Source: Escherichia coli (GTDB lineage: Bacteria > Pseudomonadota > Gammaproteobacteria > Enterobacterales > Enterobacteriaceae). Taken from it: a DNA stretch of 64,000 nt. A program made the translations under genes and the position numbers. Location of the stretch: the NCBI RefSeq assembly GCF_013315695.1, contig NZ_CP054353.1, one strand, 5' to 3'. The notes below the pieces were generated by a model. It worked only from the letters and a program-made list of their open reading frames with translations. It was not told where the DNA came from and searched no databases. This document shows positions 19,819-26,577 of this stretch, piece by piece; the stretch's first letter is position 1; each line of letters starts with the position of its first letter.

Positions 19819-20633
19819 TAACCTATCTGCACCGACAGCATACTTAAACTGCCCATTTCTATACCATCGACCGGAATGGTAATTGGCTCCTGCCCATCCC
19901 ACGCACCTAACACATACAACAACGGCAGATAGTGCTCTGGCGTTGGGTTCGATAACGCGCCACCTTCATGGTCGAGATAATTCACCAGAGGATGTTGTTC
20001 CACCGGCCCTTGCCACGTCAGATTCGCTTTCACATACTCATTAAACGACGTCGCCCACGGATACGGTGAACTATCACCGTGCCACTTCACTGTACGCAGG
20101 TTATGCACCACGTTGCCACTGGCGACCAACATTATCCCTTCATCACGCAGCGCCGCGAGTTTGCGCCCCATTTCGAAATGCCAGGCGGCAGGTTTGCTAC
20201 TGTCGATACTCAACTGCACCATCGGGATATCGGCGTCAGGATACATCTTAATCAGTACGCCCCACGAGCCGTGGTCGAAGCCCCAGGCTTCTTTATCCAG
20301 CGTCACAGGGACCGGCGCTAACAGCTCAACCAGATGCTGTGCCAGCGCAGGTGAACCCGGAGCAGGATAATGCGTATCGTACAGCGCCTGCGGGAAGCCA
20401 CCAAAGTCATGAATCGTGGGCGGCGTCTCCATCGCGGTCACTCCTGTTCCACGGGTAAACCAGTGAGCCGAAACCACCACTATTGCTTGCGGGCGTGGCA
20501 ATGTCATCCCCAACGTCTGCCAGCTGCGGGTATACAAATTATCTTCCAGCACGTTCATCGGACTACCGTGACCTAAAAACAATGCTGGCATACGTGTTGA
20601 AGACATGATGATATCCTTAACTAAAGGTGTCAT
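19818..20633 (-). CDS. ygiD: LigB-family extradiol dioxygenase (DOPA-dioxygenase-like) YgiD
   Basis: 271 aa ORF; true start may be the internal Met at MSSTRMPALF. Confidence 0.85.
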   Translation of the reverse strand: MTPLVKDIIMSSTRMPALFLGHGSPMNVLEDNLYTRSWQTLGMTLPRPQAIVVVSAHWFTRGTGVTAMETPPTIHDFGGFPQALYDTHYPAPGSPALAQHLVELLAPVPVTLDKEAWGFDHGSWGVLIKMYPDADIPMVQLSIDSSKPAAWHFEMGRKLAALRDEGIMLVASGNVVHNLRTVKWHGDSSPYPWATSFNEYVKANLTWQGPVEQHPLVNYLDHEGGALSNPTPEHYLPLLYVLGAWDGQEPITIPVDGIEMGSLSMLSVQIG

Positions 20634-20748
20634 TTTGATATCCTCACAATACGCTTGTTCGGCGGAGTAAGAACCCGGATAACAATGATGATGATCATCA
20701 GTTATTTTGACGATCTGCCTGAAAGTGAAGATTTATAAGGAGTTGTCG

Positions 20749-21522
20749 ATGTCAGTACCTCTCATTCTGACCATACTGGCGGGGGCAGCCACGTTTATTG
20801 GCGCGTTTCTCGGCGTTCTCGGGCAAAAACCCTCGAACCGCTTACTGGCGTTTTCGCTAGGATTTGCGGCGGGGATCATGTTGCTCATCTCATTAATGGA
20901 AATGCTTCCTGCCGCATTAGCCGCCGAAGGAATGTCACCTGTGTTGGGTTATGGAATGTTTATCTTCGGTCTGCTTGGCTATTTTGGCCTGGACCGCATG
21001 TTGCCACATGCGCATCCGCAGGATTTAATGCAAAAATCGGTGCAGCCGTTGCCAAAATCGATCAAGCGCACAGCCATTCTGCTCACTCTCGGCATCAGTC
21101 TGCATAACTTCCCGGAAGGGATTGCCACCTTTGTCACGGCGAGCAGCAACCTGGAGCTGGGCTTTGGCATCGCACTGGCCGTTGCGTTACACAATATTCC
21201 TGAAGGTCTGGCGGTTGCAGGCCCGGTTTACGCGGCAACGGGGTCTAAACGCACCGCGATTCTTTGGGCGGGGATTTCTGGACTGGCAGAAATTCTTGGT
21301 GGTGTGCTGGCGTGGTTAATCCTCGGTAGCATGATTTCCCCGGTGGTCATGGCGGCAATCATGGCGGCGGTTGCAGGAATTATGGTGGCGCTCTCGGTTG
21401 ATGAATTAATGCCGCTCGCCAAAGAGATTGACCCTAATAATAACCCCAGCTATGGCGTACTATGTGGAATGTCAGTGATGGGATTCAGTTTAGTGCTGCT
21501 ACAAACGGCGGGAATTGGTTAA
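20749..21522 (+). CDS. zupT: ZIP-family zinc transporter ZupT
   Basis: ORF 20707..21522; start placed at [12 protein letters not shown] (257 aa). Confidence 0.9.
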
Positions 21523-21579
21523 AAGCAACATCAGAAGTTGTCCAGCGCATGGACAACTTCTGCCAGCTTCACTAAAGCC

Positions 21580-21750
21580 TTATTCTACCTTTTCGGCTGT
21601 CTCTTCTCTCGTACTGTTTAAGTATTTGTTCCGCGCTTCAAGCAGTGCGTCTCTGTCCTGGCGAAACGCCCGACAATAACGTTTCAAATGCAGGAAATAA
21701 CCCACAACAACAAGAGCAATCAATACAATCCAGTACCAGGCGATAAACAT
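21580..21750 (-). CDS. small single-pass membrane protein, hypothetical (about 56 aa)
   Basis: ORF with TAAGGG RBS 7 nt upstream of ATG; one predicted TM helix then charged tail; no homologue recognised. Confidence 0.4.
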   Translation of the reverse strand: MFIAWYWIVLIALVVVGYFLHLKRYCRAFRQDRDALLEARNKYLNSTREETAEKVE

Positions 21751-21940
21751 CCTTTTACCCTTAATATTTAACAATACTAAACATTTAGCGCATAAATTTC
21801 ACATATCCTTTTTCGGATATATTCATATGGTCGCATAATAACGGAACAATTATATGATTTTGATCATAATGAAAAAGAATGCCTGATATTAATGAAATTT
21901 TCTCATAGAAAGAGAAGCGGAATTAACATCTTGCTTAGCA

Positions 21941-21980
21941 GGGAAAAATAAAAACCGAAGCCTGCTACAACTTCGGTTTC
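21941..21980 (-). terminator. rho-independent terminator of ribB
   Basis: stem aaaccgaag/cttcggttt followed by a T-run on the minus strand. Confidence 0.6.
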
Positions 21981-22011
21981 TTGATTAAGGCAGTAAATTA
22001 AGCAGCGGTTT

Positions 22012-22665
22012 TCAGCTGGCTTTACGCTCATGTGCCTGACGGTATGCCACCAGGTCTTCAATAGTCACGAGCGCCATATTGTGTTTATTGGCAAACTCAA
22101 TGCACTCTGGTGCACGCGCCATCGTGCCATCGTCATTAGTCAGCTCACACAGCACACCAGCCGGTTTAAAGCCTGCCAGCGTCATTAGATCAATAGTTGC
22201 TTCAGTATGACCGCCACGCGTCAGTACTCCACCTGCCTGCGCGCGAAGTGGGAAAACGTGGCCCGGGCGATTCAGATCAGAAGGTTTTGCGTCATCGGCA
22301 ATCGCTGCGCGAACGGTCGTAATACGGTCAGCGGCAGAAACACCGGTAGTCACACCTTCAGCCGCTTCAATGGTCACGGTAAAACCGGTGCCATAGGCGC
22401 TGGTGTTATTTTCTACCATCATTGGCAGATCGAGTTGTTTACGGCGATCTTCAGTAATGCACAGGCAAACAATACCGCTACCGTGGCGAATGGTCAGCGC
22501 CATCTGCTCAACGGTCATGGTTTCTGCCGGGAAGATCATATCGCCTTCGTTTTCACGGTCTTCATCATCAAGCACCATTACACCGCGTCCTTCACGCAGC
22601 GCAGCCAGTGCATTTTCAACACGTTCGAAAGGCGTACCAAAAGAGGAAAGTAGCGTCTGATTCAT
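22012..22665 (-). CDS. ribB: 3,4-dihydroxy-2-butanone-4-phosphate synthase
   Basis: 217 aa ORF, sequence recognised. Confidence 0.95.
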
Positions 22666-22689
22666 GGTAAAAAAACCTCACTAAAATTA

Positions 22690-22930
22690 TGGTTACCAGA
22701 ATCAGGGCAGTCTTAGGAGTGGCGGCATATAGCCAAAATAACGTGAGCGGGTCCATGCCCGACAGAATCGTTACTCTCTCCCATCCGGACTCTAACCGTC
22801 GGCCCCGGAATTACACCGGATCTGCTGTCCTTTGAGTTCGCACCCAAAGCGCTCGCGGGCTTTCAACTGAGTTGATTTACCGCCGGTGGGGAATTTCGCC
22901 CCGCCCTGAGAATAAGCGGATTCACTATAA
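22690..22930 (-). ncRNA. sroG: FMN riboswitch (RFN element) in the ribB leader
   Basis: minus-strand sequence AGGGCGGGGCGAAATTCCCCACCGGCGG ... GGATGGGAGAGAGTAACG matches RFN conserved blocks; bounds approximate. Confidence 0.7.
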
Positions 22931-23038
22931 CGCTAATGATTAGCGGCAGCAACGCATAGCTTCACATAATTCTGGTTTATGACTTACCCTTATCGCACTA
23001 CAATGGCACTCAACACCTATCAGTACAGGGAAACTACA

Positions 23039-23338
23039 ATGATTGACCCGAAAAAAATTGAGCAAATCGCTCGCCAGGTTCACGAATCAATGCCTAAAGG
23101 AATCAGGGAGTTCGGGGAAGATGTGGAGAAAAAAATCCGCCAAACCCTACAAGCGCAGCTGACACGTCTCGATCTGGTAAGCCGCGAAGAATTCGACGTT
23201 CAGACGCAAGTCCTGTTACGGACTCGTGAAAAACTGGCGTTACTGGAACAGCGCATCAGTGAACTGGAAGCGCGCAATAATTCGGTAGCAGATCTTCAAT
23301 CTCCTCCGGCTATCCCGCCTATTGATAAAGCAGAATAA
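23039..23338 (+). CDS. ubiK: ubiquinone biosynthesis accessory factor UbiK (YqiC)
   Basis: ORF 22979..23338; start placed at [13 protein letters not shown]. Confidence 0.8.
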
Positions 23339-23372
23339 AGCAACACAAAAACGGGCCAGACGGCCCGTAATA

Positions 23373-23573
23373 TCAGTGTTCTAATTCAAGTTCTCTGGTT
23401 TGCATCATTTGTTGGCAATACCAGGCATAACGTGCGCAAAACCAGGTTCTATGTTCTTCATCCATGTTACCAGTAACGGCCAGAATATCGACCGGGCGAC
23501 CTTCTGCGTGCATTCTGGCAAAACTACGCGCCAGGAAATCGAAATTATTTAAAGAATTAAGACTATGATCCAT
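23373..23573 (-). CDS. glgS: glycogen synthesis / surface composition regulator GlgS
   Basis: 66 aa from [10 protein letters not shown]. Confidence 0.85.
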
Positions 23574-23841
23574 AAGCACATCCTCCGGTTATCGCATACC
23601 TTTTAAGGCCATATGCTTTTTCTGATTTCAGTATTCACCAATCAGTGTAGTGCCTTTAAACATAACGTGCGTAAATATATTGTCCCCGATCACACTTTTT
23701 AGTGAAAAATAAAAAACCATATTAAAAGACTTTCTCTTCCAGAACTTCTCTAACATGTGTTATTATTAACAAAGATAAATGTAAGCAAGGAAACTATCAT
23801 AAAGTAAATATTGCGTCACTAAATGGACATTGGAGTGACAT

Positions 23842-24471
23842 ATGATTTTATTCGCCGACTATAACACCCCTTATCTTTTCGCTATTTCCTTTGTACTGTT
23901 GATCGGCCTTTTAGAAATTTTTGCGCTTATCTGCGGTCACATGCTCTCCGGTGCACTTGATGCACATCTTGACCATTATGATTCCATAACCACAGGTCAT
24001 ATTAGCCAGGCACTTCATTATCTCAATATCGGAAGATTGCCAGCTCTCGTCGTTCTTTGCTTACTGGCTGGTTTTTTTGGTCTTATTGGCATCCTGTTGC
24101 AGCATACCTGCATCATGGTCTGGCAATCACCACTCTCGAACCTGTTTGTGGTTCCTGTCAGTTTACTGTTTACGATTATTGCGGTGCATTATACCGGTAA
24201 AATAGTTGCGCCCTGGATTCCACGCGATCATAGCTCAGCTATTACAGAAGAAGAATATATTGGTAGCATGGCGTTAATTACCGGTCATCAAGCCACTTCA
24301 GGTAATCCCTACGAAGGAAAACTCACCGATCAATTTGGCCAAATACATTATTTACTACTGGAGCCTGAAGAAGGAAAAATTTTCACTAAAGGAGACAAAG
24401 TGTTAATTATTTGCCGACTTTCTGCAACTCGATATTTGGCGGAAAACAATCCCTGGCCCCAAATATTGTAA
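23842..24471 (+). CDS. yqiJ: NfeD-like inner membrane protein YqiJ
   Basis: 209 aa membrane ORF with C-terminal OB-like domain. Confidence 0.8.
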
Positions 24472-24497
24472 TTTATTAATCAAAAGGAAATTTAATA

Positions 24498-26159
24498 ATG
24501 GATGATATTGTTAATTCTGTGCCCTCCTGGATGTTTACCGCGATTATTGCCGTATGCATTCTGTTTATTATTGGAATTATTTTCGCCAGGCTCTATCGTC
24601 GCGCTTCGGCAGAGCAAGCTTTTGTTCGTACTGGTTTAGGTGGGCAAAAAGTGGTAATGAGCGGTGGCGCAATCGTGATGCCGATCTTTCATGAAATAAT
24701 CCCCATCAATATGAATACTCTGAAGCTGGAAGTCAGCCGCTCAACCATTGATAGCCTGATTACGAAAGATCGTATGCGCGTCGATGTCGTTGTCGCTTTC
24801 TTTGTGCGGGTAAAACCGTCAGTGGAAGGTATTGCCACCGCCGCCCAGACGCTGGGGCAACGCACCCTGTCGCCTGAAGACTTACGTATGTTGGTTGAAG
24901 ATAAATTTGTCGATGCCCTCCGTGCAACAGCTGCACAAATGACCATGCATGAGTTACAGGATACCCGCGAGAACTTCGTGCAGGGCGTACAAAATACCGT
25001 TGCTGAAGATCTGTCGAAAAACGGCCTGGAACTGGAAAGCGTTTCACTTACCAACTTTAACCAGACGTCGAAAGAACATTTCAATCCTAACAACGCCTTT
25101 GACGCCGAAGGTTTAACCAAGCTGACGCAGGAGACGGAGCGCCGTCGTCGCGAACGTAACGAAGTTGAACAGGATGTAGAAGTTGCGGTGCGTGAGAAAA
25201 ACCGTGATGCGCTTTCGCGGAAGCTGGAGATTGAACAGCAAGAAGCGTTTATGACGCTTGAGCAGGAGCAGCAGGTTAAAACCCGTACCGCTGAGCAGAA
25301 TGCGAAAATTGCGGCTTTTGAAGCTGAACGTCGTCGTGAAGCAGAGCAGACGCGAATTCTGGCTGAACGACAGATTCAGGAAACAGAAATCGACCGCGAA
25401 CAGGCCGTCCGCTCAAGAAAAGTTGAAGCTGAACGTGAAGTTCGCATTAAAGAGATCGAACAACAGCAGGTCACCGAAATCGCCAACCAGACGAAATCGA
25501 TCGCTATTGCCGCCAAATCGGAACAGCAGTCACAAGCGGAAGCGCGTGCCAACCTTGCACTTGCAGAAGCGGTAAGCGCCCAGCAAAACGTAGAAACCAC
25601 TCGCCAGACCGCAGAAGCCGATCGTGCTAAACAAGTTGCCCTAATCGCTGCCGCGCAGGATGCAGAAACCAAAGCGGTTGAACTGACCGTGCGGGCGAAA
25701 GCAGAGAAAGAAGCCGCAGAGATGCAGGCGGCGGCGATCGTTGAGTTAGCCGAAGCAACACGCAAAAAAGGCCTGGCGGAAGCAGAAGCGCAACGTGCGC
25801 TGAACGACGCTATCAACGTACTTTCTGACGAGCAAACCAGCCTTAAATTCAAACTGGCCTTGTTGCAGGCGCTACCTGCGGTAATTGAGAAATCCGTGGA
25901 ACCAATGAAGTCCATTGACGGTATCAAGATTATTCAGGTCGATGGATTAAACCGAGGTGGTGCTGCGGGGGATGCGGCATCAGGCAGCGTTAGTGGCGGA
26001 AACCTGGCAGAACAGGCATTGTCTGCCGCCCTTTCTTACCGCACACAGGCACCGCTGATTGACTCCTTGCTCAATGAAATTGGCGTTTCAGGCGGCTCAC
26101 TGGCGGCATTGACTTCCCCCTTAACCTCAACAACTCCCGTCGAAGAAAAAACAGAGTAA
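24498..26159 (+). CDS. yqiK: SPFH/band-7 flotillin-like protein YqiK
   Basis: 553 aa; N-terminal TM, SPFH domain, long A/E/Q/R-rich coiled coil. Confidence 0.85.
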   Translation: MDDIVNSVPSWMFTAIIAVCILFIIGIIFARLYRRASAEQAFVRTGLGGQKVVMSGGAIVMPIFHEIIPINMNTLKLEVSRSTIDSLITKDRMRVDVVVAFFVRVKPSVEGIATAAQTLGQRTLSPEDLRMLVEDKFVDALRATAAQMTMHELQDTRENFVQGVQNTVAEDLSKNGLELESVSLTNFNQTSKEHFNPNNAFDAEGLTKLTQETERRRRERNEVEQDVEVAVREKNRDALSRKLEIEQQEAFMTLEQEQQVKTRTAEQNAKIAAFEAERRREAEQTRILAERQIQETEIDREQAVRSRKVEAEREVRIKEIEQQQVTEIANQTKSIAIAAKSEQQSQAEARANLALAEAVSAQQNVETTRQTAEADRAKQVALIAAAQDAETKAVELTVRAKAEKEAAEMQAAAIVELAEATRKKGLAEAEAQRALNDAINVLSDEQTSLKFKLALLQALPAVIEKSVEPMKSIDGIKIIQVDGLNRGGAAGDAASGSVSGGNLAEQALSAALSYRTQAPLIDSLLNEIGVSGGSLAALTSPLTSTTPVEEKTE

Positions 26160-26319: not shown

Positions 26320-26480
26320 ATCAACAATCGGGGAGTCAGCAAGGGGCTGAAACGGGAAAGCCCCTCCCGAGGAAGGGGCCTTATAGAAGGAAAGGGTTAT
26401 GATGAAGTTCGTCATCATACTGGTTGTGTTGTTACTGTTAAGTTTCCCGACTTACTAACAACTCATCAGAGGGGGGAGAA
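26320..26480 (-). ncRNA. Sib-type antisense RNA (antitoxin) overlapping the ibs ORF; bounds approximate
   Basis: inferred from the ibs ORF and flanking GC hairpins (ggggct...agcccc, cccctcc...ggaagggg); K-12 carries sib/ibs loci between yqiK and hldE. Confidence 0.45.
26399..26458 (+). CDS. Ibs-family type I toxin (19 aa hydrophobic peptide MMKFVIILVVLLLLSFPTY)
   Basis: tiny ORF with AAGGAAAGGG RBS; peptide nearly identical to E. coli Ibs toxins. Confidence 0.65.
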   Translation: MMKFVIILVVLLLLSFPTY

Positions 26481-26577
26481 ATCCTCCCTTACCCTTGTTC
26501 CTTTACTTTAGGTTGAAAAAACAACAGCGTCAATAGGTCTATCCGGCACAACGCGAGAACTGTGAAGCGCTTTCCGG

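Follow-up and report, generated by a model that had tools for sequence, protein, structure and literature searches.

The FMN riboswitch in the ribB leader of an Escherichia coli genome: extent of the functional unit, alternative helices and relation to sroG

The element located on the minus strand at positions 22769-22917 of the window, i.e. the complete stretch of 64,000 nucleotides of Escherichia coli DNA that was analyzed, was confirmed to be the known E. coli ribB FMN riboswitch. Nothing in the analysis contradicts this identification. Taking all lines of evidence together, we regard it as almost certain that the element is the ribB FMN riboswitch with a cis-acting leader of 252 nt, which is driven into the OFF state by FMN via a sequestering stem and Rho. 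The element is already known and represents the type example of a Rho-coupled, translationally acting FMN riboswitch. The element is of biological importance, since ribB is an essential gene. The antibiotics roseoflavin and ribocil target the FMN riboswitch, which belongs to the best-characterised riboswitches. The find is a positive control: a structured regulatory RNA was spotted from the raw sequence and confirmed by a scan. Since the copy in the window is identical to the K-12 reference, nothing new was learned from it. Useful corrections concern the 5' UTR (252 nt), the functional unit (22657-22952) and sroG, which is the riboswitch fragment itself.

The initial annotation had claimed that the ribB leader on the minus strand contains an FMN riboswitch in intact form and had named a covariance-model scan with RF00050 as the way to check it. 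The scan (cmscan, Rfam 15, window positions 20000-26000) bore this claim out. A match at 22769-22917 (minus strand) was obtained with 120.9 bits (E 1e-28), far above the gathering threshold of 66.2 bits; it spans model positions 1-138 of 138 and is not truncated. In the 64-kb window this was the sole FMN element found by the Rfam scan at gathering thresholds, and a covariance model of our own gave the same single match. The aptamer is situated on the same strand as ribB within the 5' UTR and covers nt +1 to +149 of the transcript, with the ATG of ribB at +253. The basic features are:

22769..22917, minus strand: aptamer of the FMN riboswitch (RFN element) with helices P1-P6, spanning nt +1 to +149; RF00050, RefSeq feature and covariation
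22908..22915, minus strand: 5' strand of P1, nt 3-10, UUAUUCUC; Rfam structure line
22771..22778, minus strand: 3' strand of P1, nt 140-147, GAGAGUAA; Rfam structure line
22012..22665, minus strand: ribB coding sequence, 217 aa; ORF list and RefSeq annotation

Two other matches were sub-threshold and were rejected as noise, namely an AdoCbl-II match overlapping the aptamer (22.3 bits vs 36.5) and a snoZ105 match (26.4 bits vs 45). The plus-strand ORFs running across the aptamer, e.g. 22689-22835 (48 aa), were rejected as antisense chance ORFs.

Mapping of the Rfam structure onto the window resulted in a P1 with eight canonical pairs out of eight and in a junction completed by five internal helices besides P1. 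The junctions of the FMN pocket, J1/2 (AGGGC) and J6/1 (GGAUGGGAGA), match the Rfam consensus with maximal posterior probabilities. P1 and the multi-helix junction were also recovered when the aptamer was folded alone. A search for aptamers with the conserved P6/J6-1 core in a species-level genome collection identified 120 loci in many phyla. A small covariance model was built from the aptamers of the window and of E. albertii, and 87 hits were aligned. In this alignment, which was fitted to the model, 95.4% of the cells form standard pairs, compared to 36-55.5% when the partners are slid by 1-3 columns. Changes on both sides were present at 18 of the 28 pairs, and none of 500 shuffles reached any of the observed covariation measures. 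For P1, compensatory changes were found across the relatives at six of the eight pairs. The invariance of P6 among the 87 aptamers is partly forced, because P6 lay in the search pattern. Compensatory base changes strongly support the predicted six-helix junction P1-P6. A single deviating aptamer was observed in Vibrio mexicanus (L060 4323-4462, minus strand), which carries CUCAGGCGGGG in place of the CUCAGGGCGGGG found in all others and has one G fewer in J1/2. This aptamer still scores 103.8 bits with our own covariance model, and the missing G may reflect either an error in sequencing or a variant that is tolerated.

Comparison of window positions 22600-23040 (minus strand) with K-12 MG1655, comprising the promoter, the leader and the first 66 coding nucleotides, revealed identity at 441/441 positions. 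Because of this identity, experiments performed on the K-12 leader apply to the window sequence without qualification. The E. coli K-12 ribB FMN riboswitch, also catalogued as sroG, shares with the window the sequence, the aptamer coordinates, the transcription start, the pause sites, anti*-P1 and the sequestering stem, and no difference was found in the element. Only the neighbourhood differs, as ubiK and glgS are not separated by the ygiL-yqiGHI fimbrial cluster in the window.

Of 5426 complete E. coli genomes, 5425 contained a 401-nt segment around the element, 5424 of them with at least 99% identity, and the RefSeq features beneath these matches read 'riboswitch | ribB'. In a 100%-identical O157:H7 record the 'FMN riboswitch' annotated by PGAP converts exactly to window positions 22769-22917. 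The riboswitch had been described beforehand as expected rather than novel; with a sequence identical to K-12 and a RefSeq annotation as FMN riboswitch already in place, we agree. It had also been stated that ORF-based annotation would miss the element. This is correct if only ORFs are called, and no feature is listed at the locus in the MG1655 record used for the comparison, whereas PGAP annotates the FMN riboswitch in other E. coli genomes. As further observations on its distribution, the ribB leader match was absent from one of the 5426 genomes, some genomes carried two copies, and one copy was located on a plasmid; a 301-nt leader query gave 35 records at 95-99% identity.

The 5' end of the transcript was derived from two sources. 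The supplement of the RegulonDB TSS paper (PMC2760140) places the ribB start determined by 5' RACE at -252 relative to the ATG and gives a sigma-70 -10 element printed as tagcGTTATAGTgaat / GTTATAGT. PMC11571811 names the residues C175, G176, U181 and G149 and a helix formed by nt 141-149/175-183 with two G-C pairs only. Only a +1 at window position 22917 satisfies all four residues as well as the helix; one other offset of +1 passes the base identities, but yields no helix. As 22665 + 252 equals 22917 and the hexamer TATAGT lies at -12 to -7, the 5' RACE start and the residue numbering agree. The following features resulted:

22917, minus strand: +1 (G), first nucleotide of the ribB/sroG transcript; 5' RACE (-252) and published numbering
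22924..22929, minus strand: -10 hexamer TATAGT, positions -12 to -7; sequence and PMC2760140 supplement
22947..22952, minus strand: putative -35 hexamer TTGCTG, 3/6 match to TTGACA, with a 17-nt spacer to the -10 hexamer; read from the sequence and placed by its position relative to the transcription start

A consensus promoter scan found no sigma-70 site for the ribB leader. This is a false negative, because the rule of the scan needs 4/6 matches and the -35 hexamer has 3/6. The ribB 5' UTR is 252 nt in length. The leader of roughly 350 nt given by the initial annotation was thus corrected by the 5' RACE data and the residue numbering; that figure is nearer to the ribB-ubiK intergenic distance of 373 nt. 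A second 5' end associated with ribB, at -36 (~22701, minus strand), is listed in the RegulonDB supplement (PMC2760140) on the basis of one 454 read. This entry seems to contradict itself, because its printed promoter element CAGTTGAAA lies inside the aptamer, and this 5' end could be a processing product or noise.

Downstream of the aptamer the leader combines conserved and variable parts. In all 12 gammaproteobacterial relatives whose downstream sequence was long enough (E. albertii, Citrobacter, two Enterobacter, Acerihabitans, Arsenophonus, Providencia, Photorhabdus, two Vibrio, Enterovibrio and Shewanella) ribB was found directly 3' of the aptamer. A module GCCCUG(A/G)UUCUGGU...SD...ACCAUGAAUCAG was kept in 13/13 leaders, and the linkers of the 13 leaders vary widely in length and sequence. 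The features of the expression platform are:

22693..22705, minus strand: 5' strand of the sequestering stem, nt 213-225, CUGAUUCUGGUAA; fold, conserved in 13/13 leaders
22657..22670, minus strand: 3' strand of the sequestering stem, nt 248-261, UUACCAUGAAUCAG, containing the ribB AUG (22663-22665); fold and conservation
22676..22679, minus strand: Shine-Dalgarno sequence GAGG, nt 239-242, located apically in the sequester hairpin within a weak A-U/G-U stem; sequence and fold
22735..22743, minus strand: 3' strand of anti*-P1, nt 175-183, CGUUAUUUU, pairing with nt 141-149 in the FMN-free state and holding the pause sites C175 (22743) and U181 (22737); PMC11571811
22702..22710, minus strand: putative anti-P1/anti-sequester partner, nt 208-216, CUGCCCUGA, pairing with nt 9-17 (22901-22909)

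The interval 22690-22930 named initially includes the -10 box and the aptamer together with the larger part of the expression platform. It misses the Shine-Dalgarno sequence, the AUG and the sequestering stem's 3' strand. The functional unit is 22657-22952 and exceeds that interval on both sides.

The sequestering stem pairs nt 213-225 with nt 248-261 by 13 canonical pairs with the U of the AUG bulged, and it was present in all folds. Its 5' strand showed a single substitution among the relatives, an A to G change that retains a G-U pair. On the window anti*-P1 consists of nine canonical pairs, two of them G-C, and arises spontaneously in the unconstrained minimum free energy (MFE) fold. For the ON state, helices at both the 5' and the 3' extremity of the aptamer are described in PMC11571811. 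Regarding the 5' extremity, the exact pairs of anti-P1 would be nt 9-17/208-216 (9 pairs) with a 3-bp extension of nt 3-5/220-222, as we infer from the sequence; all of these pairs are canonical, and they cover most of the 5' strand of the sequestering stem. The same landing site was the best duplex partner of the aptamer 5' end in most relatives. Furthermore, the GCC of the module is kept in 13/13 leaders even though it is located outside of the sequestering stem, which would be explained by its place in the putative anti-P1 partner. When the linkers of the 13 leaders were shuffled 200 times, 2-34 of the shuffles equalled or surpassed the 5'-end duplex, which was weakly better than chance. 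For the 3'-end duplex this number was 37-148, and it was no better than chance. As the sequestering stem and anti-P1 are invariant among the relatives, they are supported by conservation and not by covariation. P1, anti*-P1, anti-P1 and the sequestering stem are all fully canonical on the window and share strands, so that they are mutually exclusive.

Folding energies were calculated for the leader in both states. With both aptamer and sequestering stem enforced (OFF) the energy was -71.4 kcal/mol, ligand and tertiary energies excluded, whereas it ranged from -79.2 to -82.7 kcal/mol with anti-P1 and anti*-P1 enforced (ON); the unconstrained MFE was -88.1 kcal/mol. In these modelled energies ON lies below OFF without ligand, which is the ordering that a ligand-driven OFF switch requires. 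When only the 9-bp anti-P1 was enforced, a shortened sequestering stem still formed, and the 3-bp extension (from duplexfold) was needed to open it. In the constrained ensembles the pairing probabilities of the start region were:

AUG (22663-22665, minus strand): OFF 0.65, ON 0.31
nt 215-227: OFF 0.88, ON 0.58
Shine-Dalgarno sequence (22676-22679, minus strand): OFF 0.79, ON 0.59, a modest change

The computed shift in the pairing of nt 215-227 agrees with the FMN-dependent RNase H protection of nt 215-227 and P1 that is published in PMC11571811. The unconstrained MFE of the whole leader was no more stable than that of shuffled sequences (z = -0.15). This z-score is uninformative here, because MFE folding detects bistable RNAs poorly.

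Three observations on the expression platform are added. Upstream of the sequestering stem a box ACUCCUAAGACUGCCC (22705-22720, minus strand, nt 198-213) is near-invariant in the leaders of E. coli and eight other Enterobacterales, and the leaders of Vibrio, Enterovibrio and Shewanella carry a CCUC/CCCUCU motif in its place. When the fold is left unconstrained, CUCCU is paired with GGGAG (nt 135-139) in J6/1 of the aptamer. The box, located in a C-rich stretch, could be part of the ON-state fold or a rut site. Secondly, in Candidatus Enterovibrio escacola an FMN riboswitch-ribB unit was found on the 25-kb plasmid pMJ3 (L071 1798-1941, minus strand, and downstream) with a sequester module as in the chromosomal copies of other species. 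Thirdly, an ORF of 46 aa (22616-22756, minus strand) starts at nt 162 and runs out of frame into ribB. It was rejected as a leader peptide, since it has no Shine-Dalgarno sequence and is not conserved in frame: a 1-nt deletion was found in E. cloacae, the ATG is shifted in Enterobacter Bisph1, and the ORF is absent in Providencia, Photorhabdus, Arsenophonus and Vibrio. Its AUG lies in the loop of a small CGGG/CCCG hairpin. Most likely it is a chance ORF.

With these elements the switch can be described as follows. The sigma-70 promoter (TATAGT at -12 to -7) initiates transcription at 22917, and the first 149 nt fold into the six-helix aptamer. Binding of FMN during transcription locks P1 (nt 3-10/140-147). 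With P1 locked, nt 213-225 are free to pair with nt 248-261. This pairing buries the AUG, and the Shine-Dalgarno sequence comes to lie in the weak apical part of the hairpin. Translation initiation is then blocked, and Rho terminates transcription in the expression platform or in the early coding region. In the FMN-free state the strands of P1 are captured by anti*-P1 (nt 141-149/175-183) and by the putative anti-P1 (nt 9-17/208-216 and nt 3-5/220-222). The start site remains accessible and ribB is expressed, because anti-P1 would take the sequestering stem's 5' strand.

The literature on the identical K-12 sequence provides the evidence for FMN binding, for repression at the level of translation, for the involvement of Rho and for the pause sites. 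Published experiments on that sequence also include the repression of a ribB-reporter fusion by FMN or riboflavin, an altered repression after disruption of the 213-225/248-261 stem and an effect of bicyclomycin or a rho mutant on ribB mRNA control. PMC11571811 gives a Kswitch of about 0.06-0.2 uM in nascent transcripts and pause sites at nt 175/181 and 247-249 which bound the FMN-sensing window. On the window these correspond to 22743/22737 and 22669-22671, the latter overlapping the 5' end of the 3' strand of the sequestering stem. Deletion of the leader (223 bp) derepresses ribB and riboflavin output, and the cultures turn yellow (PMC9885008). A Rho termination score of 3.1 was determined for ribB by ChIP, and control was lost in a rho R66S mutant (PMC5499598).

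Two views can be taken of how Rho is brought in. According to the model in PMC5499598 and PMC11571811, FMN directly exposes a rut sequence in the riboswitch. In the window a candidate region was found in the linker:

22698..22757, minus strand: C>G linker, candidate Rho-loading (rut) region, nt 161-220; C-G profile

This region is a plausible rut region, because it is the only stretch of the leader with C over G. The C-G excess is +5 to +6 per 40 nt, compared to -11 to -12 in the 3' half of the aptamer, and the rut site would accordingly be placed at nt 161-220. Alternatively, the switch could be purely translational, with Rho acting indirectly in the unshielded coding region of ribB and no rut site under the control of FMN in the leader. 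Rho was shown to act in this indirect way at the thiM riboswitch of E. coli (PMC5499598). Furthermore, the AUG-burying sequestering stem is the most conserved part of the platform, and the C-rich stretch seen in the leader is a modest one. However, PMC5499598 and PMC11571811 class ribB as direct, with FMN exposing rut sites and with termination sites in the expression platform, and an FMN-dependent exposure of nt 184-193 was observed (PMC11571811). Purified Rho without ribosomes was moreover able to terminate transcription in the leader upon stimulation by FMN, a result which both papers attribute to Hollands 2012 and which rules out a purely indirect effect. We therefore consider the purely translational alternative unlikely and prefer the direct exposure of a rut site by FMN.

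Compared with other E. coli riboswitches, those of thiM, thiC and lysC resemble ribB in having an aptamer in the 5' UTR, sequestration of the ribosome binding site and AUG, a pause near the start codon and a Rho-dependent reduction of the mRNA, but they differ in their ligands and aptamer families. At thiM the Rho effect follows indirectly from the block of translation, whereas a direct exposure of rut is described for ribB (PMC5499598).

The leader had also been regarded as long enough to host the sRNA sroG. The 5' RACE start places the common 5' end of sroG and ribB at window position 22917, and sroG needs no extra room, as it is the riboswitch portion of the same transcript. The old K-12 coordinates of sroG would convert to 22769-22917. 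In the literature sroG is located in front of ribB in one operon with it, with a determined transcription start (PMC2760140); the two are described as being under one shared promoter, and sroG was reinterpreted as 'actually a riboswitch'. An independent, trans-acting sRNA gene that merely overlaps the ribB leader would be in line with the catalogue entry of sroG as sRNA, with the detection of the homologue Ysr183/SroG on northern blots in Yersinia and with the function of SroG being stated as unknown in the literature. Against such a gene stand the transcription start, promoter and operon shared with ribB and the reinterpretation as riboswitch. In addition, the promoter/terminator scan found no separate promoter or terminator of sroG, and its extent coincides with the aptamer (RefSeq feature and presumed old sroG coordinates). 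We thus regard an independent gene as highly improbable: sroG is the aptamer-bearing 5' part of the ribB leader transcript and no extra element. The SroG RNA would then be an aptamer-containing 5' fragment of the ribB transcript. That this abundant fragment, set free by Rho termination or by processing, has a second job in trans (FMN buffering or mRNA pairing via its exposed conserved strands), or that the box ACUCCUAAGACUGCCC is a dedicated Rho- or protein-recruiting signal, appears very doubtful.

The FMN riboswitch of ribD (rib operon) of B. subtilis has the aptamer family, the ligand, the six-helix architecture and the P1-controlled switching logic in common with the element of the window, but it uses an intrinsic terminator/antiterminator, whereas the window element has none and makes use of the AUG/SD sequestering stem and Rho. 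A ribD-like mode, in which FMN induces an intrinsic terminator hairpin in the leader, might be suggested by the shared aptamer family and by a U7 run (nt 243-249) after the apical part of the sequester hairpin, but is effectively refuted, since the terminator scan found no G+C-rich hairpin with a U-run between aptamer and ATG (22666-22768, minus strand), the hairpin in front of the U7 run consists of A-U and G-U pairs, and PMC11571811 explicitly contrasts E. coli ribB with the transcriptional type of B. subtilis. The lack of an intrinsic terminator in the leader is consistent with the published Rho dependence.

Behind ribB the terminator scan indicated the end of the transcription unit:

21950..21981, minus strand: intrinsic terminator-like hairpin with U-run after ribB, end of the transcription unit; terminator scan

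A sub-threshold STnc240 match on this terminator (21943-22013, minus strand; 29.1 bits vs 55, E 0.29) was rejected and is probably a generic terminator resemblance.

At the ubiK-glgS junction (23338-23373) the window runs directly from ubiK to glgS like O157:H7. In K-12 MG1655 this position is occupied by about 6.6 kb comprising the ygiL-yqiGHI fimbrial operon and an inserted IS2, a strain-variable island adjacent to the riboswitch locus. A hairpin with U-run at 23351-23368 (minus strand) resembles a glgS terminator in the terminator scan. Downstream of yqiK a full-length SIB RNA was found at 26384-26533 on the minus strand (RF00113, 142.2 bits, E 2e-29), an antitoxin sRNA of the Ibs/Sib type I toxin-antitoxin system. 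It was the only copy at gathering score in the window. In K-12 the locus presumably holds sibD and sibE as two copies in tandem, so that the copy number may differ between the window and K-12. Finally, one tRNA gene was detected at 47356-47428 on the plus strand (RF00005, 73.1 bits).
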